A DNA stretch of 64,000 nucleotides from Candidatus Kerfeldbacteria bacterium RIFCSPLOWO2_02_FULL_42_19 (lineage in GTDB: Bacteria; Patescibacteriota; Patescibacteriia; HO2-48-17). The notes beneath the pieces were generated by a model, which did not search any database, was not told where the DNA came from, and was given only the letters and a program-made list of their open reading frames with translations. Of this stretch, positions 6,160 through 51,402 are shown one piece after another. A program made the translations under genes and the position numbers. Location: NCBI GenBank assembly GCA_001818315.1, contig MHKF01000012.1:251149-315148 (forward strand), given 5' to 3'. Every line of letters begins with the position of its first letter. Positions within the stretch are counted from its first letter, which is position 1.

Positions 6160-6420
6160 TTAAAGAGACTGTCGCTGAATATGCTCGCGTCTGTGAGAAA
6201 TGAATGTGCATCATAGCAAGAGAGGAAGAAAACTCTCCTTTCTCAGCACACTGTGCAGTGTCAGTGCTTCGAAAGGGAGAGTCTGCCTCCTCTTTATGTT
6301 TTGTTCATTGGGTCTGTCGCCGAATACGCTTTCGTCTGTGAAATGCTACAATTGTAACAGAAATGGTATTCGGCGACAGACCCTCATTGCACAAGAAATG
6401 GCATTCAGCGCCAGTCTCTT
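6160..6420. repeat. Composite nested palindromic repeat (hairpin family A with two outer arm pairs)
   Basis: Two arm pairs are present. The first is agactgtcgctgaatatgc paired with gcattcagcgccagtctct. The second is gggtctgtcgccgaatac paired with gtattcggcgacagaccc. A hairpin lies between them, with the shared core ctcagcacactgtgcagtgtcagtgcttcgaaag as its loop. Confidence 0.8.
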
Positions 6421-18102: not shown

Positions 18103-18122
18103 TACTCTCTTCAACTTGTTCC

Positions 18123-18230
18123 CCGGGATAAATTTTTTTCAGAACACACGGAAAAGTGTCCTGCAAAAAATTATCCCAGGGAGCGAGTTGAATCGACTTG
18201 CATACTTTCATAGCTAAGGAAAAGTGTCCT
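18123..18230. repeat. Small palindromic element (family B: inverted-repeat arms around the TTCAGAACAC..GAAAAGTGTCC core) plus a partial direct duplicate
   Basis: ccccgggataaattttt pairs with aaaaaattatcccaggg, flanking cagaacacacggaaaagtgtcctgc. ggaaaagtgtcctgcaaaa repeats at 18209. Confidence 0.7.
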
Positions 18231-25936: not shown

Positions 25937-25940
25937 AGAG

Positions 25941-26018
25941 CAAAGAGGAGGAAGACTCTACTTTCGCAGCACTGACAAGGCATTATGTGCTGCGAAAGTA
26001 GAGTCTTCCTCCTCTTTT
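25941..26018. repeat. Family A hairpin with a perfect 32-bp stem, immediately 3' of lgt (likely terminator)
   Basis: caaagaggaggaagactctactttcgcagcac, loop tgacaaggcattat, then the exact reverse complement. A T-run follows. Confidence 0.85.
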
Positions 26019-26291
26019 TTCTATGATCAAAATGTATTTTTCACAGGCGAAAGCGCATTCGGCGGCAGTTTCATAAAGGTATTTTTTATTTAGCCATTTT
26101 TTTTATTTTCAACTTGATCATTCCGCGTCAGCTTGCTACGCGGAGGTTCATTTGGAGTAAGTTTGACATTTTCTTTATTTTGTGATATAATTTTATTCCA
26201 AATTCAGGATTGTGAAAGTGCGTCGTGCGCTCTAAGCAATCGCTGAAGGAACCTTAAAAATTCAACAAATGAGCGACCAGCGTTTGTAAAG

Positions 26292-27293
26292 ATGGTCTTT
26301 CGAAACGTCTGGCGCTTCTACAGAAAAAGGGGACAAAGCATGTACTATCTTTGCATTTTTTTAGTGGCAGTCTTCATTGCGTTGATGATTTTCCGGAGGA
26401 ACTGGGATCGGGTGGTGTTCACGGACGCTCACGTTTGGATTTCCGATATCATTGTAGGTGTGGTGGCGGCGGGAGTGTGGTTATTCCTTAATCATCTGAA
26501 TGAGAAGTTCCTGTCGGACTCCGGATGGTGGTGGTTGGTGTATGAAGGTTTCCTCGTGCTTGGGGCGTTTTTCCTACTGCGAGGAACCAGGAAGGTCGTC
26601 CCGCCGTGTAGGAGGTGGCGGGTGTACGGGTTCAACGGCCTCGAGGACCCGGATCTATTGGACGGCCAGAATCTCGTGCCGCCATGGAAGGACGTGTACG
26701 AGGCGGCGGACAACACCGCGGACACCAAATGGGAAATGGTGAAGGGCGAGTGGCAGTGGCGTCGAGATGCCATGCGCTCGACGCTGATCTTGATGGTCCT
26801 TTTCGTTCCAACCTTTCTCCTGCACTGCCTCGTAGAGAACCCGCACTTTCTGGTGGGGGTTTCCTGGGTCAAAACAGGTGCGAGGATTGTGGCCACAGGG
26901 AGCACCACCGTCAGTACGCCTTTCGAGGATTACCTGGAGGAAGAGAAGGCGGTGGAGTACCGGCCATTTTACCCGGAGACCTGCCGCTTCCGGATTGACC
27001 CGCCGGGAAACCCCTCTTTAATTGAGGTTGACATGGTCTTGGAGTCCACTTTGCGGCAAAATCCAGAAGTTTGGACCAGGACGCCGTACACCACGCCGAA
27101 CTTTGGAATTTGGCACCTCCGGAAGCACGAGTTCTATCAGCAGTTCCGGAGGGAGCCGTGGGTTCTCCGGCTGAACCTCAGGCGGGTCGATCAACACGGA
27201 TTTGTTCACAAAACTTACATCCGGTTGATGGTCGACTGTGCGGACCGCGGTCATGGTGCGTCGGGGGCCACTGTAGTATCTGCAGCACCGTGA
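26292..27293 (+). CDS. Hypothetical Trp-rich membrane protein with anomalous GC composition (likely horizontally acquired)
   Basis: Region 26450-27300 is about 58% GC against about 40% elsewhere, with spurious open frames on all strands, typical of high GC. Four N-terminal TM helices. The true start is probably MYYLCIF at 26340. Confidence 0.5.
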   Translation: MVFRNVWRFYRKRGQSMYYLCIFLVAVFIALMIFRRNWDRVVFTDAHVWISDIIVGVVAAGVWLFLNHLNEKFLSDSGWWWLVYEGFLVLGAFFLLRGTRKVVPPCRRWRVYGFNGLEDPDLLDGQNLVPPWKDVYEAADNTADTKWEMVKGEWQWRRDAMRSTLILMVLFVPTFLLHCLVENPHFLVGVSWVKTGARIVATGSTTVSTPFEDYLEEEKAVEYRPFYPETCRFRIDPPGNPSLIEVDMVLESTLRQNPEVWTRTPYTTPNFGIWHLRKHEFYQQFRREPWVLRLNLRRVDQHGFVHKTYIRLMVDCADRGHGASGATVVSAAP

Positions 27294-27457
27294 GTGATGT
27301 CCCTCGATTCTCATACGGCGTCGTAGTGCCCGGCGCCACGATTTTACACCTTCGTTTAGCCCTTTATTAGAACCCTCCAAGCTTTCGAGCGCGGAGGGTT
27401 CTTTGTTTTCTTATAGCACAGTTATCAAAAATGAGTTTCGACAATACACAGATAAGA

Positions 27458-27533
27458 GATAAGAGAGGAGAAGATGATAAGCTTTCGAAGCACTAACACT
27501 GCACTGTGTGCTAAGAAAGGTTATCATCTTCTC
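27458..27533. repeat. Family A hairpin in reverse orientation, 23-bp perfect stem
   Basis: gataagagaggagaagatgataa, a 30-nt loop containing gcactgtgtgctaagaaag (the core in reverse complement), then ttatcatcttctcctctcttatc. Confidence 0.85.
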
Positions 27534-27796
27534 CTCTCTTATCTCGTTTCGATTGTATTGCGCTGCGCCTGTGATTCATCAACTCGTGGTATAATGGGTC
27601 TGTTGCCGAATACCATTTCTGTTGCAATCGTAGCATTTCGGCCAGAATCGCTTCAAAATTTTTCGGCTTATATTCCATATAAACCTCAAAATTTATTCAG
27701 CGATTCTGTCACGAAATTCTACGATTTCACAGGCGAAAGCGCATTCGGCGACAGACCCATAATAGAAATCGATCGTTTACTCTTAAAATTTTCAAC

Positions 27797-30700: not shown

Positions 30701-31072
30701 ATTATTGTTGGACCGGAATTTGGCGCGCCGCACATACAAATGTTCAGTGTCCAGAAAAATAAAGTAAAATTACTGAATCCAGGGTTTTTCGCGTTCAGCA
30801 AGGATTTCTACGGTGGCGTGAGTGTCGCTGGTGGAGATATTGATGGCGACGGTCGTGATGAAATTATTGTTGGGGCAGGGGTTGACGCGACGCCGCTCGT
30901 GCGGGTATTTAATAAAACTGGTTCAAAAATTATCAAAGAATTGTTGGTGTTTGCGGACGGTTTTTTGGGCGGTGTGAATGTTACAGCCGGCGATACTGAC
31001 GGCGATGGGGTCGATGATATTACCGTGATGCCACGGAGTAATAGCGTACCAATGCTTCGTGTTTTGAAGTGA
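27797..31072 (+). CDS. Large secreted NHL-repeat / IPT-TIG / FG-GAP (VCBS) repeat surface protein
   Basis: Signal peptide. About 12 NHL-like blades (LYVADTGNHRIRRV, LYVADKDNHAIRRI). A TIG domain (VSRVDPNMKTVPDGPEVTLFVSVTGSNF). C-terminal FG-GAP repeats (GDLTGDGVAE, GDIDGDGRDEII, GDTDGDGVDDI). Confidence 0.8.
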   Translation: MRTNLPIQFSFRSSAFLLMLTTFAFLLPQATEAKFGDVATYVGKIIGGDGKDKLEAYLDQPKDFAVDSAGNFYIADTMNNVVRKIATDGKVSTVAGTGAYGDTDGDTNKARFGWPEAIALDGSTIFLADTDNSKIKKISGGKVTTLVSSGLSKPKGLYADTENDILYIADTGNNALKKVSFSGGSVSKVASGLSSPTKMTKNGSALYVANTGNQRIVAVDITNGSVTTLASGFLNIGGVYFYDGAVYEVDGDGLFDFLYKVTLDGTKTLLAEDEHMITLNTSSAILVRDGKIYVLNSGGSSIYRFDLDGQNPFHYAGKDRFGNDNGTGTGALIGRPKGLVLSHDRKFFYLAENNKIRKIERTTGVVTSLIGNSVDNYKEGRTGSEGRFSDITGVVISPDNKTLYVVDRNNNRIRGVDIATKTDFLITGAGEINSTSESDNGYQEGAKCLGEFKAAAAGCAYFNRPIGIAISLDGNFLYIADTGNHRIRRVRVSDGVTTLIAGSGKAGFKNGAGAATELSSPMSVAIDHDGAFLYVADKDNHAIRRIRLSDRKVETLAGTGEPGYNDATFDKTVFSFPEYVTFGGDGHVYVSEVGGQRIRQLDLEEEVTKLVAGSGIRGFRDGKKNDAQFNNPKGLVVDAPDDRVYVADNFNDLIRVIDIEGEAPFTEQAPKVSRVDPNMKTVPDGPEVTLFVSVTGSNFRHGAKAIFGTFEAVNTYVQSSTQLAVELPFGLMFPGSYDVTVQNVDTQQHTLLKGFRVANKDNTVPDVYFRADGTVTGGSAPAPAKSTFFPYDSTLVGGFHPLSCDLTGDGVAELLTGPDVGFGPQVRVFQQNGKALFSFFAYAETLRSGVRVACGDLTGDRFAEIVTAPGPGGRPHIRIFDHKGVLKHPGFFALDGLFQGGTYVDVGNVNGDRRGDIIVTAGKGGGPQVTVHRMDGTMLANFFAYDKNTFRGGIRSAVLDFDDDGIDEIIVGPEFGAPHIQMFSVQKNKVKLLNPGFFAFSKDFYGGVSVAGGDIDGDGRDEIIVGAGVDATPLVRVFNKTGSKIIKELLVFADGFLGGVNVTAGDTDGDGVDDITVMPRSNSVPMLRVLK

Positions 31073-31165
31073 CCGACGAGACCGTTGAGTTCGTTTTGTT
31101 GACTGCTTTGGACTTCTTTTTTTATTTTATCTTAGCTATCTTTCTATTTTTTTAATCGAGAGCTA

Positions 31166-31194
31166 TTGACAAATATTTACCGTTGGTTTATAAT
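31166..31194 (+). promoter_or_regulatory. Perfect consensus sigma70 promoter TTGACA-17-TATAAT
   Basis: ttgaca aatatttaccgttggtt tataat, read directly. No ORF with a ribosome-binding site follows. Confidence 0.75.
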
Positions 31195-31200
31195 AGTGGC

Positions 31201-31685
31201 TGTTACGATGAAAGTTCGAGACTGTTCGTTGTTATAATTCAGTGAGGAGAGAGCCGCCACCCGTCGGTTATCGGGTCACATGTTTCTTTATGTCAGGATC
31301 AACGCTGAGGTCTGCGTATGTCCTTATGTGAAGCATGTGTTACTCATCGAATTACAAGGCGATGGGGAGAACTCTTCTCTAGGAAACGAATCTATTTGTA
31401 TTTTAGACAAGATATTTCCCGATCGCCTTTTTTGCTGGCAAGAGACATGGAGAGGAGAGAGTAACATCCATCAAGATAAGGTAAATATTTATTATTTTGA
31501 CCTTTCAACTTGATGCTCTCCATATCTCTCGCTGGCAAAAGCCAGAATAACAGAATTTTCCTCACGTGCGGCTTGGAAAGGAAAATCAAAACCAGACTTC
31601 TCAGTCCAGCAGAAAGAAGGAGATGGAATTACATGGCGTAATTCTTATTTATTTATAAAGGCCCCCTGAGTGAGGGGGCCTTTAT
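31201..31685 (+). ncRNA. Candidate about 480-nt structured noncoding RNA of unknown class
   Basis: It lies between the consensus promoter and a perfect intrinsic terminator. The only ORF is 77 aa, with no SD and implausible composition. Several local helices are visible (GAAUUAC-AUGGC-GUAAUUC, CUGGC-AAAA-GCCAG, AGAGACAUGGAGAG pairing with CUCUCCAUAUCUCU about 55 nt away). No RNase P P4, tmRNA T-arm or SRP domain IV motif was found. Confidence 0.45.
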
Positions 31686-31690
31686 GGTTT
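31657..31690. terminator. Bidirectional intrinsic terminator shared by the ncRNA candidate (+) and the histone-fold gene (-)
   Basis: aaaGGCCCCCTgagtgAGGGGGCCttt, with U-runs on both strands. Confidence 0.8.
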
Positions 31691-31716
31691 TCCGTTGATC
31701 GTGACTATGCAAAGAT

Positions 31717-31893
31717 TTACAGATCGTGAGGTTTTACGGTTGTCCGCTTGTTTCCTTGAGCACGTTTGCAGGCGGCTTCAACCATCTGCATGACTTTTTT
31801 ATTGAGCTCGTCCATAAGCTCGGATGATGTCATGCACTTTTGTGATTTGATGTAGGCTTTGAGTTTGGAGCCTACAATGAGCATGTCACTCAT
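31717..31893 (-). CDS. Bacterial histone-fold DNA-binding protein (DUF1931 / Bdellovibrio Bd0055-like)
   Basis: 58 aa: MSDMLIVGSKLKAYIKSQKCMTSSELMDELNKKVMQMVEAACKRAQGNKRTTVKPHDL. It is colinear with the Bd0055 bacterial histone (xVLVVTSKVKKLIKEK-GQMNTSAETIDVLSKAIEQLCLKAVESAKADGRKTVMARDI), which I am quoting from memory. A TTGCGA-17-TATACT promoter lies upstream. It falls below the 60-aa ORF-track cutoff. Confidence 0.8.
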   Translation of the reverse strand: MSDMLIVGSKLKAYIKSQKCMTSSELMDELNKKVMQMVEAACKRAQGNKRTTVKPHDL

Positions 31894-32051: not shown

Positions 32052-34004
32052 TTATTGTCGCATCTGTTTGGACCACAGACGGGCATAGATGCCTGTGGTA
32101 TTCAAGAGTTGGCGGTGTGAACCAATTTCGACGAGACGTCCTTCGTGGAACACGAGAATACGATCGAAATTTTGTATTGTTGGTAGTCGGTGGGCTATAG
32201 CGAGCATCGTGCATCGACCTTGTCCTCGAATTTTTTCAATCGCTTGTTGTATGAGCGCTTCGTGTTCCGAATCTACACTGGAAGTAGCTTCATCAAAAAT
32301 GAGCAGCTTCGGTTGACGTGCAATCGCTCGTGCAATGCCAATGAGTTGGCGTTGCCCGCCGGAGAGCAGCATGCCTCGTTCTCCAATGAGCGTGTTATAT
32401 CCATTGGGCAACTTCATAATGAACTCATGTGCTTGCGCAATTTTTGCGGCCGCAATAATTTCGTGCATCGCTTGTTCATGAATATTCTCCGGGTCTATTG
32501 CACTGAAGCACGCAATGTTCTGTGCGATTGTCCGACTAAAGACTTCTACCTCCTGCGGGACGTAACCGATATTTTGTCTCCAATCACTACGTCGTACTGT
32601 TTTTAACGGTTGACCGTTGACAAAAATCGTTCCGTGCTTGGGATCATAGTGACGCAGGAGAAGCTTCACAAACGTCGACTTGCCGCTGCCGGTGAGTCCA
32701 GCAATGCCAATGAATTCGCCAAACTGAATGTTGACATTGACATCGTGTAGCGCACTGGTTCCATTGCTGTGGATCATATCACTACTGACTGCTGGTGTGA
32801 GTTGCTGCGGTGCATCAGTCATTGCAGAGATCGCTTCTTGTGCATGATTGAGTCCATTGTGTGTCGAGCACACGACGAGTCTTTTGCGTGAATTGTATTC
32901 GAAATCCACATCTTCAAATCGGATGAACGATGTTGGATTCGGAACACTCGACAACGGACGAGGATGCGGTAGATCCTCAATCAACGGTGGGGTTTTGAGG
33001 AGGGTTATGAGTCGCTTGATGCCTGTTTCTGCTTCCGCCATTTGCCGACGCACTCGGAAGATGCGATACAAATGAATAAAGTTTTTAATGGAAAGCGTCA
33101 TGCAGAGGTACCATTCTCCAAGCGTGATTCTGCCTGTTACGACGTGGAGACAAATGACGCCTAACACGATGCCGATCGAAACAGCCATACAAAGCCCACG
33201 CACAACATTGTAGCGTATGTACGTCGTGTTGATGTCATACCACAATCGGATTATGTGATTGACTTTTGTTTCAACCCTTTGTTGCACGCGTTCTTGCATC
33301 CCATGCGATTGAATGCTGTTAATATTGAGGGCATTTTCAACCATATCTGATGCCAGCGCTTCTTCATGATCCATTTCTTTTTCATGCATCGGTTTTACGA
33401 CTATTTCCAGTCGCAAGGATAGGTATATGTAAGGAATGATGAGCACGCCGAAGACGGCCATAACCCACCAGTCGTATATGAGGAGCATGACGCTACTGAC
33501 GAGGAGGAGGAATGAGGTGGGGAAGAATTCGTAACACAGGTTGAGGAGAAACATGATCAGGTTATCGATGCCGCGATGTATCTGCTTCATGAGTTCACCT
33601 GAATTGTGTTGTTCGTGGAAGCCGAGTGAAAGATCAAACAGTTTTTGATGCGTCACGATGTACTGATGCCGTGTGCTGTCTGCGATTGTTTTCTTCCAAA
33701 TCTGCCGATCTGCGACGTGATCAATAAGATCAAGTCCGGCGTACAAACCTGTGTAGGCGAGGATGAGCAGTGCGAGATCCCACTGGAGTTGTCTATCGAT
33801 CTGAATGTGTTCGACGTGATTTTTTATGAAGTCGAGGATCTTGCTCAGTAGCCACGGGTCGAGGAGGCGTGCGAGTTGTATGAAGAGCATGAGCATAATG
33901 AGGGTGACGAATGCCTTCTGCACCGGTTTCAAAAGCTCCCAGAGATTTTTTGAGAATACCGAAATTTCTTTCGCGACTTTCGTTAGTTCCAATCTGGACC
34001 GCAT
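32052..34004 (-). CDS. ABC exporter, fused permease/ATPase (MsbA/MdlB-like)
   Basis: Six TM helices followed by Walker A GLTGSGKST, the ABC signature LSGGQRQ, and Walker B LLIFDEATS. Confidence 0.9.
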   Translation of the reverse strand: MRSRLELTKVAKEISVFSKNLWELLKPVQKAFVTLIMLMLFIQLARLLDPWLLSKILDFIKNHVEHIQIDRQLQWDLALLILAYTGLYAGLDLIDHVADRQIWKKTIADSTRHQYIVTHQKLFDLSLGFHEQHNSGELMKQIHRGIDNLIMFLLNLCYEFFPTSFLLLVSSVMLLIYDWWVMAVFGVLIIPYIYLSLRLEIVVKPMHEKEMDHEEALASDMVENALNINSIQSHGMQERVQQRVETKVNHIIRLWYDINTTYIRYNVVRGLCMAVSIGIVLGVICLHVVTGRITLGEWYLCMTLSIKNFIHLYRIFRVRRQMAEAETGIKRLITLLKTPPLIEDLPHPRPLSSVPNPTSFIRFEDVDFEYNSRKRLVVCSTHNGLNHAQEAISAMTDAPQQLTPAVSSDMIHSNGTSALHDVNVNIQFGEFIGIAGLTGSGKSTFVKLLLRHYDPKHGTIFVNGQPLKTVRRSDWRQNIGYVPQEVEVFSRTIAQNIACFSAIDPENIHEQAMHEIIAAAKIAQAHEFIMKLPNGYNTLIGERGMLLSGGQRQLIGIARAIARQPKLLIFDEATSSVDSEHEALIQQAIEKIRGQGRCTMLAIAHRLPTIQNFDRILVFHEGRLVEIGSHRQLLNTTGIYARLWSKQMRQ

Positions 34005-34257
34005 AGTTTTCTCCTTAGTTAGTGCACTTTCGTCATTGCACTGATTGATTGTGATGTCGAAGTACGATCTCTACAAACAAAAATTCTGGCTTGTATGCCA
34101 GAATCTCGGTATCATGTTTTGATTATTTTTATGCATGATTATTCCTCCATATTGTTCTTCGAGATTTTGACATACGAGTATCGCTCCGCGTAAAAATCGG
34201 AGATCCATTGTTTCCAGACGATATATATTGTCGTGCGAGGGTCAACATCACCTTATT

Positions 34258-34305
34258 TTAACTTGATAATTCCGCGCTAGCTTGATGCGCCGGTTTCATT
34301 CTCAG
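34258..34305 (+). repeat. Conserved about 45-nt motif (family C), copy 2 of 3
   Basis: ttttaacttgataattccgcgctagcttgatgcgccggtttcatt. Compare the copies at 26108 and 53088. Confidence 0.7.
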
Positions 34306-34358
34306 AAGAACTTACTCTATCACACCGAATTTTTTTGTCAAATTATGATGAGACTGAT

Positions 34359-34523
34359 GGGCTGTCGCTATAAATACCGTTTCCTGTGCAACGCGCAAAA
34401 GAAAAGAGGAGGAAGACGAGACTTTCTCAGCACACTGTGCAGTTGTTAGTGCTTCGAAAGCTCTTGTCTTCCTCCTCTTTTCTTTATACATGAAATAAGA
34501 AACGGTATTTATGGCGACAGTCC
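34359..34523. repeat. Composite family A element: outer 25-bp inverted-repeat arms plus inner 16-bp-stem hairpin
   Basis: gggctgtcgctataaataccgtttcc pairs with gaaacggtatttatggcgacagtcc. The inner hairpin aaaagaggaggaagac...gtcttcctcctctttt carries the ctcagcacactgtgcag core. Confidence 0.85.
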
Positions 34524-34546
34524 TCTGATTGTCTTTTCGATAATAT

Positions 34547-34780
34547 GTGTATTTTAGTACTGATGATTTTGGTTATGATCCATCTGGAGAGACGACGTCT
34601 GAAGGAGTGTTGTATGCACTTCGTGCTGAGAGTGGAGAACGTGTTTGGAGTTCTGAGGCATTTCAAGGAGTTGGATCGGCTCAAACTTCACCAGCTGTTT
34701 CTAATGGCGTAGTGATTTTTGCCTCTTATGATGATCAGCAGAGAAAGGATCATGGAGTTTTTGCATGTACATCTTTGTAA
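34547..34780 (+). pseudogene. Fragment of a PQQ/BamB-like beta-propeller protein
   Basis: GVLYALRAESGERVWS...SPAVSNGVVIFASYD propeller-blade motifs in a 77-aa ORF that lacks an N-terminal domain. It sits next to the repeat element. Confidence 0.35.
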
Positions 34781-39636: not shown

Positions 39637-39699
39637 AACTCTATTATATCGTAAAAGACTTTCGCGTCACAAATTAAGGTCATGCCGTTGAACAATAGC

Positions 39700-39885
39700 G
39701 GGACTGTCGTTGAATGTGCTTTTGTCTGTGAAAAAGCATTTGCACAAAGTACAAAGAGGAGCAAGACTCTCCTTTCTCAGCACACTGTGCACTGTCAGTG
39801 TTTCGAAAGCGAGAGTCTTGCTCCTCTTTGTACTTTGAATCACATTCATTGACTCACAGACAAAAGCGCATTCAACGACAGTCCC
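39700..39885. repeat. Composite family A element: 31-bp outer inverted-repeat arms plus perfect 27-bp-stem hairpin
   Basis: gggactgtcgttgaatgtgcttttgtctgtga pairs with tcacagacaaaagcgcattcaacgacagtccc. The inner hairpin is caaagtacaaagaggagcaagactctc and its exact reverse complement, with the ctcagcacactgtgcactgtcagtgtttcgaaag core. Confidence 0.9.
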
Positions 39886-39988
39886 ACAATGGTTCAGATT
39901 ATTTTTTACGAAGTTCCTACTGACAAGATCACGTCGTCACGGTATAATAGATTTGCGCGTGTTCGATGAAAATTTCAGAAACAAATAT

Positions 39989-49224: not shown

Positions 49225-50061
49225 ATGTCTTTGTTTCACGAACAACTCAAGGGTCTTGATTTTACCGATAAACAAATAGATATCTATCTGTATCTTTTAC
49301 GTGAAGTGCGTGCGTCGGCAAAACAGATTTACGAGTCGTTGCATCTCAATAAAGTCACCGCGTATAAAGTTTTGGATGAACTCGTTGAGATGGATGTGAT
49401 CGGTGTGATCCATGGCGAAGATGCTAAGCTCTATATTTGTAAACCGCCGGACCATCTCTGGAATGTCATTAATCGCAAACTCAAGACCCTGAATGAGCAA
49501 CGCAAGCTTTTGAAAAATGCTATTCCCGAACTTGTCGGTGAATATAATAAACACGCTTCTGCAAAACCACAGATTCGTTTTTACGAAGGCAAGAAAGGCT
49601 TAAGCGCCATTCGGAAGAGTTTTTTGGATGTGGCACAGAAGGAGATTTGTGGCATTTTCTCTGGTGACGATGTAGAACGTGTTTTTTCAGAAGCAGAACG
49701 TGTTTTGTTTTCTACTGAACGAAAAGCTCGTGGTATTCTGAGTCAGAGTATTTATACCCGCAGTCCCGGTCCGTATGCTGCTGCCGACGATCAGGCAATT
49801 CTTGCTCGGACGCATTATATTCGCGGCGAACGATTTCCTATTTTGAGTGACATCAGTATCTATGATAACAAGGTTGCGATTGCATCATTACGTGAACATT
49901 TATGGGGTGTCGTCATTGAAAATCACGCTATTGCCAAGACGCTACGCACGCTTTTTCTTTTAGCAGTTGAGGGCGTTCAGCATTTGCGTAGGTGTCAACA
50001 TCAATCTTCTTTCTCGACAGCGGCAACCCAAAAATCTAAAGTTACTACAAAACAAGTTTGA
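49225..50061 (+). CDS. TrmB-family transcriptional regulator (paralog of 47930..48727)
   Basis: Same architecture (DKQIDIYLYLLREV..., ...RFYEGKKGL..., ...SDISIYDNKVAIASLR...). It aligns along its whole length with the upstream paralog. Confidence 0.8.
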   Translation: MSLFHEQLKGLDFTDKQIDIYLYLLREVRASAKQIYESLHLNKVTAYKVLDELVEMDVIGVIHGEDAKLYICKPPDHLWNVINRKLKTLNEQRKLLKNAIPELVGEYNKHASAKPQIRFYEGKKGLSAIRKSFLDVAQKEICGIFSGDDVERVFSEAERVLFSTERKARGILSQSIYTRSPGPYAAADDQAILARTHYIRGERFPILSDISIYDNKVAIASLREHLWGVVIENHAIAKTLRTLFLLAVEGVQHLRRCQHQSSFSTAATQKSKVTTKQV

Positions 50062-50090
50062 CATATTTTTTGATCTCGGTATAATTCTTT
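50057..50090 (+). promoter_or_regulatory. Promoter (TTGACA-16-TATAAT) and leader of the rplJL operon
   Basis: ttgacatattttttgatctcggtataat, then an about 120-nt leader before rplJ. Confidence 0.55.
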
Positions 50091-50210
50091 TAAGCCGTAG
50101 AATACAGGTGTTCTCGTATTGCTTTTGCAAACCGGAACTTAATTGCCTGTCGAGGTAGATAAGATGATTGGTGTTTTATTTTATTCTGCGGTAGGTAACG
50201 CAGTTTTTTT

Positions 50211-50735
50211 ATGGCTAAAACTCGTACAGAAAAAGAAAATATTGTTCAGTCTTTAGGTAAACTCTTCAAGCAGAACGCAGGGATTGTGTTTGTTGCTTAT
50301 TCCCGAGTTTCGGTAAAGGATATGCTTGCGCTTCGTAGGGCCGTGAAACAGAGTCAATGCGGTGTGTCCGCAGTAAAGAAAACACTACTTACGCGTGCCT
50401 TAGTAATTGCTGGAGATACGTATGATGTCGGCACATTAAACGGTTCTGTCTTTGTGGGCTATGGCAGCGATCAAGTCGCTCTTGCGAAAGTGATCGATCG
50501 ATTTCGCAAAGAGCACGGAGAAAATATAAAGATGCTTGGCGGTATACTTGACCACACAGCGGTTTCGAGCGAGCAGATCATGTCACTTGCTCAACTTCCT
50601 TCACGAATGGAACTGACGGCACAATTCGTTGGAACTCTTGCAGCTCCGATTGTTGGGTTTGCACGAGTATTATCGGGAACAATGCAAAGTTTTGTGTACG
50701 CCCTGTCTGCTTTGCAGAAGAAAAAGGCTTTATGA
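50211..50735 (+). CDS. rplJ: 50S ribosomal protein L10
   Basis: KTRTEKENIVQSLGKLFKQNAGIVFVAYSRVSVKDMLALRRAV. Confidence 0.9.
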   Translation: MAKTRTEKENIVQSLGKLFKQNAGIVFVAYSRVSVKDMLALRRAVKQSQCGVSAVKKTLLTRALVIAGDTYDVGTLNGSVFVGYGSDQVALAKVIDRFRKEHGENIKMLGGILDHTAVSSEQIMSLAQLPSRMELTAQFVGTLAAPIVGFARVLSGTMQSFVYALSALQKKKAL

Positions 50736-51277: not shown

Positions 51278-51402
51278 TTTTTGTTCGTTGGTGTATAAAG
51301 TGAGAGGGGGAGGATGATATTTTTGGAGCACACTGTGCATTCTTAGTGCTCTGAAAATATCCGCTGCCACCTCTCTTTTATTTTTTCAATATTGCATTTC
51401 CT

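Follow-up and report, generated by a model that had tools for sequence, protein, structure and literature searches.

Introduction

The multi-hairpin, trans-acting riboregulator RNAIII of Staphylococcus aureus has a length of 514 nt and folds into 14 hairpins. Other large, ORF-free, and highly structured bacterial RNAs, i.e., OLE, GOLLD, ROOL, HEARO, and raiA, were found by intergenic inspection, are represented in Rfam, and form classes whose definition is based on covariation in many genomes. Among the housekeeping RNAs, bacterial RNase P RNA is recognized by its conserved regions CR-I (GAGGAAAGUCC) and CR-V (ACAGAAnnCGGCUUA), which form helix P4, as well as by P1-P3 and by motifs of the specificity domain, and only 2-3 nt separate its ACAGAA from the P4 strand. 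The genomes of CPR/Patescibacteria are tiny, hardly any regulatory RNAs have been described in these bacteria, and a literature search for ncRNAs of CPR, Patescibacteria, or Kerfeldbacteria found nothing relevant.

Here we describe a unit of about 490 nt (450-490 nt) from a groundwater Candidatus Kerfeldbacteria (CPR) genome that extends from a promoter to a terminator and contains no credible gene. It is located in the window, i.e., the whole stretch of 64 kb that was analyzed. RNAIII and this unit resemble each other in a length of several hundred nt, in having a strong promoter and an intrinsic terminator of their own, in a series of stable hairpins, in pyrimidine-rich segments that could pair with ribosome-binding sites, and in a narrow lineage. 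In contrast to RNAIII, to which it shows no sequence or Rfam relationship, the element has no embedded conserved peptide gene, no linkage to a regulator, and no target from a scan, and its transcript is a predicted one. With OLE, GOLLD, ROOL, HEARO, and raiA it shares large size, the lack of ORFs, high structure, and the mode of discovery, but it was found in one species only and matches none of them. A promoter of the type found with abundant RNAs and a rod-like hairpin (H5) with a large asymmetric bulge are reminiscent of 6S RNA. However, the element is about 2.5 times too long for 6S RNA, lacks a central bubble with a long stem on either side, and gives no Rfam 6S match at E<=10. We see about an even chance that positions 31166-31690 constitute a young, species-restricted, structured ncRNA gene of about 450-490 nt that would be transcribed independently.

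Promoter, Terminator, and Layout of the Unit

A sequence-only reading of this DNA had claimed an exact sigma-70 consensus promoter and, about 485 nt downstream, a terminator consisting of a hairpin and a U-tract, and both are borne out by the features listed in Table 1. Sites of the form TTGACA-N16-18-TATAAT occur three times in the 64-kb window (at 26163, 31166, and 50058), whereas 0.01 would be expected from dinucleotide shuffles, and the copy at 50058 lies directly upstream of the L10 leader and rplJ-rplL. Because of this rarity and of the rplJ-rplL copy, the exact sites seem to be real and strong promoters here, and in this Kerfeldbacteria genome they would mark strongly expressed units. 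The remaining copy precedes a gene whose 333-aa product, a protein of unassigned function, is likely to be highly expressed; gene and promoter region are kept in the relative L213. The unit has a G+C content of 42% (genome, 44%) and is single-copy within the window.

Table 1. Features of the unit and of its surroundings (positions are those of the 64-kb window)
Feature	Position	Strand	Remarks
28-aa ORF	31069-31155	+	Very hydrophobic (MTDETVEFVLLTALDFFFYFILAIFLFF); overlaps NHL stop codon and T-rich region upstream of promoter; most likely an artifact of T-rich sequence
T/A-rich stretch 5' of -35	about 31112-31165	+	Read from sequence; possible UP-like element
Sigma-70 promoter TTGACA-17-TATAAT	31166-31194	+	12/12 consensus; -35 TTGACA at 31166-31171, 17-nt spacer, -10 TATAAT at 31189-31194; predicted start near 31201
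H1, 5' terminal hairpin	31201-31236	+	15 pairs, mean probability 0.87; -8.8 (+) vs -2.1 (-) kcal/mol, stable on + only
Possible second promoter, extended -10 TGTTATAAT	31230-31238	+	Inside H1; read from sequence; speculative
Closing helix, 9 pairs	31242-31250 (GUGAGGAGA) with 31557-31565 (UUUCCUCAC)	+	Predicted, encloses H2-H5; probability 0.62
H3 hairpin	31273-31345	+	Replaced by unrelated same-length hairpin in L061/L062
77-aa ORF	31280-31513	+	Longest ORF of this strand; no Shine-Dalgarno (SD) sequence
48-aa ORF	31318-31464		Sole ORF with SD-like motif, GAGG 7 nt 5' of ATG
H4 hairpin	31356-31429	+	30 pairs, probability 0.95; three strain SNPs
H5 long hairpin	31430-31540	+	24-pair basal stem, 14-nt 5' bulge, A/U-rich tip
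Purine-rich 3' domain	31541-31620	+	Poorly defined structure, pair probability about 0.3
Small pre-terminator hairpin	31621-31650	+	12 pairs, probability 0.67
Intrinsic terminator	31653-31692	+	Stem 31653-31687, 15 pairs (7 G-C), 5-nt loop, then TTTTCC U-run
Histone-fold gene	31717-31893	-	58 aa; Pfam DUF1931 below threshold; structure 9qt0, E = 4e-14; also Bdellovibrio-type histones 8fvx, 8cmp
ABC exporter gene	32052-34004	-	650 aa; in 185,579 GTDB species genomes, about 31% identity for full-length matches and up to 46% for segments of the ATPase domain
Spacer	34056-34545		+ fold about 20 kcal/mol better than - fold
10/12 promoter in this spacer	34341-34314	-	
Terminator-like hairpin in this spacer	34107-34080	-	Just before ABC transporter start; may, with the 10/12 promoter, be a regulatory leader
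77-aa ORF, ABC/Peripla_BP_2 spacer	34547-34780	+	PQQ/BamB-like beta-propeller fragment (PF13360, E = 3.8e-5); probably a gene remnant
Second exact consensus promoter	26163-26191	+	TG extended -10
Gene of 333-aa protein	26292-27293	+	No Pfam domain
Third exact promoter, immediately 5' of L10 leader and rplJ-rplL	50058-50218	+	Ribosomal protein L10 leader confirmed by Rfam (51.5 bits)
Palindromic repeat family	25937-26022, 27451-27550, 34398-34485, 39745-39837, 51302-51375		70-100 nt, near-perfect, just 3' of genes
Hairpin, doubtful family member	18122-18181		Only central part of consensus kept
Second palindrome layer	34359-34523, 39689-39896, 6310-6383		Arms GGGCTGTCGC..AATACCGTTTC around inner hairpins (nested inverted repeats)

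The terminator had also been described as shared with the convergent histone-fold gene, and this applies in part. Its hairpin lies 30 nt past the stop of that gene at 31717, but the U-run exists on the + strand only and a terminator scan reports 31653-31687 solely for this strand. As reading of the - strand gives an A-rich tract after the hairpin, the terminator seems to belong mainly to the + unit and to be loosely shared.

The convergent arrangement raises the question of whether the promoter acts by antisense transcription or transcriptional interference, i.e., whether read-through produces an antisense RNA to the histone-fold gene and tunes histone expression, the structured body being incidental. 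The promoter indeed points toward the histone-fold gene, only the 30 nt mentioned above separate the terminator hairpin from its stop codon, and relatives have a plain bidirectional terminator and no such promoter. However, little read-through is expected with a + terminator of 15 pairs and a U-run, and interference does not need a structured spacer of 490 nt, which makes this explanation improbable.

Coding Potential

The claim that the unit contains no credible ORF holds. The 77-aa frame is annotated by public gene callers, but it has no SD sequence, it finds only itself among 5.8e9 protein clusters and, with full HMMER, among 1.84e9 representatives, and stop codons interrupt it in a strain variant (L061/L062). 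Seven small ORFs, counting both strands, give no Pfam match. A small-protein gene might still be sought in the 48-aa ORF, for which the SD-like GAGG speaks as well as the fact that its frame remains open in the same variant. However, SD and ATG of this ORF lie inside H3, a hairpin for which the variant has another one, with loss of the GAGG. Four SNPs fall into the stretch of the frame that the variant shares, of which three are non-synonymous and one is synonymous. Conservation of a codon pattern, by which a protein gene would have betrayed itself, was looked for and did not occur. Neither the 77-aa nor the 48-aa ORF combines a ribosome-binding site with a reading frame under purifying selection. 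The region 31166-31690 is therefore unlikely to encode a micro-protein, and we regard a small-protein gene, whether in the 48-aa or in the 77-aa ORF, as quite improbable.

Predicted Structure and Strain Variation

Folding of the + strand yields a minimum free energy of -175.6 kcal/mol, compared with -126.8 +/- 6.3 kcal/mol for shuffled sequences (z = -7.76), and the fold of the - strand also reaches z = -7.76. The two strands differ in their G-U pairs, 25 in the + fold versus 11 in the - fold (p ~0.03, a rough binomial estimate of our own), and H1, H3, and H4 are each more stable on the + strand by 7-10 kcal/mol. Both the G-U bias and the greater stability of these three hairpins on the + strand are what RNA-level selection on the strand of the promoter predicts; the fit of the G-U bias is suggestive only. 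Mean pair probabilities amount to 0.87-0.96 for H1, H3, H4, H5, and the terminator, and the stability of these four numbered hairpins depends on G-U pairs that only the RNA of the + strand can form. The arms of the 111-nt H5 (31430-31454 and 31516-31540) are 84% complementary, and the longer-range complementary pair noticed earlier (31446/31514) turns out to be the stem of this hairpin. Segment UUUCCUCAC of the closing helix has AGGAAAAU (31579-31586) as an alternative partner. The promoter spacer (31171-31181) is complementary to the tip of H5 (31480-31490) over 11 nt, which was judged to be due to chance.

With respect to predicted structure, the unit ranks fifth among 261 windows of 490 nt in the 64 kb, and it ranks only fifth because the genome holds several hairpin-rich spacers. 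Hairpins alone are not special in this Kerfeldbacteria genome. The palindromic repeats (Table 1) have the consensus AAAGAGGAGGAAGA..TTTCG.AGCAC-N14-GTGCT..GAAAG..TCTTCCTCCTCTTT, in which the arms correspond to perfect SD and anti-SD strings, and probably represent a repeated element of a terminator-like or REP/MITE-like type. Spacers with nested palindromes are the most structured 490-nt windows of the 64 kb, and a similar long hairpin is found 3' of the NHL gene in the relative L213 (5360-5455). Like the palindromic family, H3-H5 are long spacer hairpins with GA-rich and CU-rich arms, but they are less perfect, are G-U-rich on one strand, and do not align to the consensus, so that they were rejected as family members.

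Same-species contigs from several assemblies (L001-L003, L057-L060, and L215) are identical across the RNA region, and one variant allele is found in two independent ENA assemblies (L061 and L062; accessions ERZ27254852 and ERZ27254739). The variant is identical from 31440 rightwards and shows six differences in 31340-31440. Its H3 sequence is wholly different and yet forms a hairpin in which length, closing pairs, and flanks are kept; neither the window nor any of the loci retrieved contained a further copy of this variant hairpin. All three SNPs in H4 strengthen pairing, two by converting G-U to G-C pairs and one by converting an A.A mismatch to a U-A pair, whereas in H5 a terminal pair is disrupted by one SNP. 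A single pair is changed on both sides between the two alleles. For two alleles only, this pattern of variation is compatible with selection for structure.

The swappable H3 is the one unusual feature of the element. One might imagine a new, abundant, large structured RNA of the CPR in which H4, H5, and the 3' domain form a conserved scaffold and H3, which differs completely between co-occurring strains, serves as a swappable module, i.e., as a strain-specific specificity determinant that would recognize, for example, a partner, a phage, or a host nucleic acid or protein. We consider this scenario a long shot.

Known RNA Families

The region was compared with the 4227 covariance models of Rfam 15, at the gathering score and then at E<=10 on both strands. 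At the gathering score no known class matched, and at E<=10 only sub-threshold chance matches of the miRNA/snoRNA type and terminator look-alikes appeared, e.g., Phe_leader with 23.7 bits (cut-off, 55 bits). ARAGORN found no tRNA and 0 tmRNA genes in the window. The earlier statement that the element is not RNase P RNA, tmRNA, or SRP RNA thus agrees with the model searches, and tmRNA, standard or permuted, which is characterized by a tRNA-like domain with T-arm and CCA end and by a tag reading frame, was discarded.

A highly divergent housekeeping RNA (RNase P RNA, tmRNA, 6S, or SRP RNA) might have been missed by the Rfam models, and size and strong promoter would suit such a stable RNA. Also, GAGGAGAGAGCCGCC (31244-31258) bears a loose resemblance to CR-I of RNase P and ACAGAA...GCGGCUU (31551-31577) to CR-V, and GAGCCGC is able to pair with GCGGCUU. 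However, 14 nt are inserted between ACAGAA and the putative P4 strand GCGGCUU instead of the 2-3 nt of RNase P, neither P3 nor specificity-domain motifs were seen, and no RNase P model matched, so that RNase P RNA was rejected. Considering also that no RNase P, tmRNA, 6S, or SRP model matches even at E<=10, that ARAGORN is empty, and that relatives should show a housekeeping RNA, this explanation appears extremely improbable.

TIGR-Tas systems served as a lead for a comparison with guide arrays (PMC12045711). Such arrays consist of tandem direct repeats with spacers in between. In the region, tandem repeats are absent and direct repeats do not exceed matches of 14-16 nt in two copies, and a CRISPR or TIGR-type guide array was ruled out as there is no repeat family.

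Distribution in Relatives

Four relatives were examined, whose NHL-repeat proteins are 86, 66, 65, and 51% identical to that of the source organism. In the closest one (L213; NHL protein 86%, gene 78% identical at the DNA level), the NHL gene has one palindromic hairpin behind it, after which a different gene is located. In L045 and L214 (66 and 65%), the distance between the stop codons of the NHL and histone genes is only 75-80 nt, and this interval contains a plain bidirectional terminator. In a CG08 Kerfeldbacteria relative (51%), a convergent kinase gene is located 55 nt after the NHL gene. A search with nhmmer at maximum sensitivity in 155 kb of DNA from relatives gave no match.

The histone-fold gene adjoins the NHL/FG-GAP gene in L045 and L214 as well, whereas L213 and the CG08 relative do not show this arrangement. 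In L045 and L214, Cob_adeno_trans together with a 173-aa or a 163-aa gene occupies the place of the ABC exporter; as these two relatives hold other genes there, both flanks of the histone gene seem to have been remodeled in this species.

Outside the species, the element was not found in any relative or collection searched. Homologs of the histone-fold protein fall into nine clusters, and the contigs of all of these lack the element. Five k-mers searched against IMG/VR gave chance matches only, and nhmmer on the viral pattern matches was empty. One 18-mer gave 53 chance matches in JGI metagenomes, on which nhmmer was empty as well, a weak negative since the source organism itself was not retrieved. 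Phage and plasmid sequences yielded no BLAST match, and the synteny route, using the ABC transporter against GTDB species genomes, revealed no close relative, which is a weak negative with respect to the element.

Because there is no homolog outside the species, no test of covariation across species is possible, and because there are no homologs, the status of a new class is unsupported. Conserved structured ncRNA classes are known by their presence in several genomes and by covarying pairs, and neither was found here. From the proposal of a candidate novel structured ncRNA, what stands is the structured, gene-free promoter-terminator unit that belongs to no Rfam family; what does not stand is the novel class, as all four relatives lack the element at the syntenic site.

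This distribution would also be expected of a functionless or selfish insertion, i.e., a recent hairpin-rich spacer derived from mobile or foreign DNA or from the control regions of a decayed gene, which is transcribed by chance and whose RNA has no role. That four of four relatives carry a terminator or another gene in place of the element, that the neighborhood of the histone-fold gene is rearranged between lineages, that this genome tolerates many long palindromic spacers, and that no collection searched holds a homolog are all in line with such an origin. In contrast, a 12/12 promoter where 0.01 would be expected, combined with a matched + terminator, is hard to explain as leftovers. Furthermore, the G+C content is close to that of the genome, the hairpins stand outside the repeat family and have no second copy in the window, and the G-U strand bias together with the pairing-improving SNPs points to constraint at the RNA level. 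On balance, we consider a functionless insertion possible but unlikely.

Discussion

A generic sRNA or ncRNA gene has its own promoter, its own terminator, and no translated ORF, and all three are predicted for this unit from its sequence. An ncRNA gene is the simplest account, because it explains at once the exact promoter, the matched + terminator, the absence of a gene, the strand-biased hairpins, and the pairing-friendly SNPs. What counts against an ncRNA gene is that, as no homologs were found, neither covariation nor a sign of long-term selection is seen, that the - strand folds with the same z, and that other spacers of the genome are still more structured. The element is a candidate for an orphan RNA without described family, and orphan genes of the sRNA-like type that are restricted to one species are familiar.

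If it is an ncRNA gene, the element may have arisen or inserted recently in the spacer between convergent genes, where relatives have a terminator only (L045 and L214) or another gene. Its product would be an abundant and stable RNA acting as RNA. In analogy with multi-hairpin riboregulators, it is most plausible that the long hairpins would provide stability or a double-stranded surface for protein binding. The purine-rich 3' domain and the CU-rich/GA-rich (anti-SD-like/SD-like) segments would be the likeliest contacts for a protein or for ribosome-binding regions of mRNAs. RNAduplex against 52 start regions performed no better than shuffles and gave no target, being a crude scan that is uninformative for an RNA of ~490 nt. 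As it concerns one uncultivated species and no target can be inferred, the finding does not open a general question. If confirmed, however, a strongly expressed structured RNA of 490 nt would be among the very few candidates for such RNAs in the CPR and would provide an example of a young ncRNA gene born between convergent genes.
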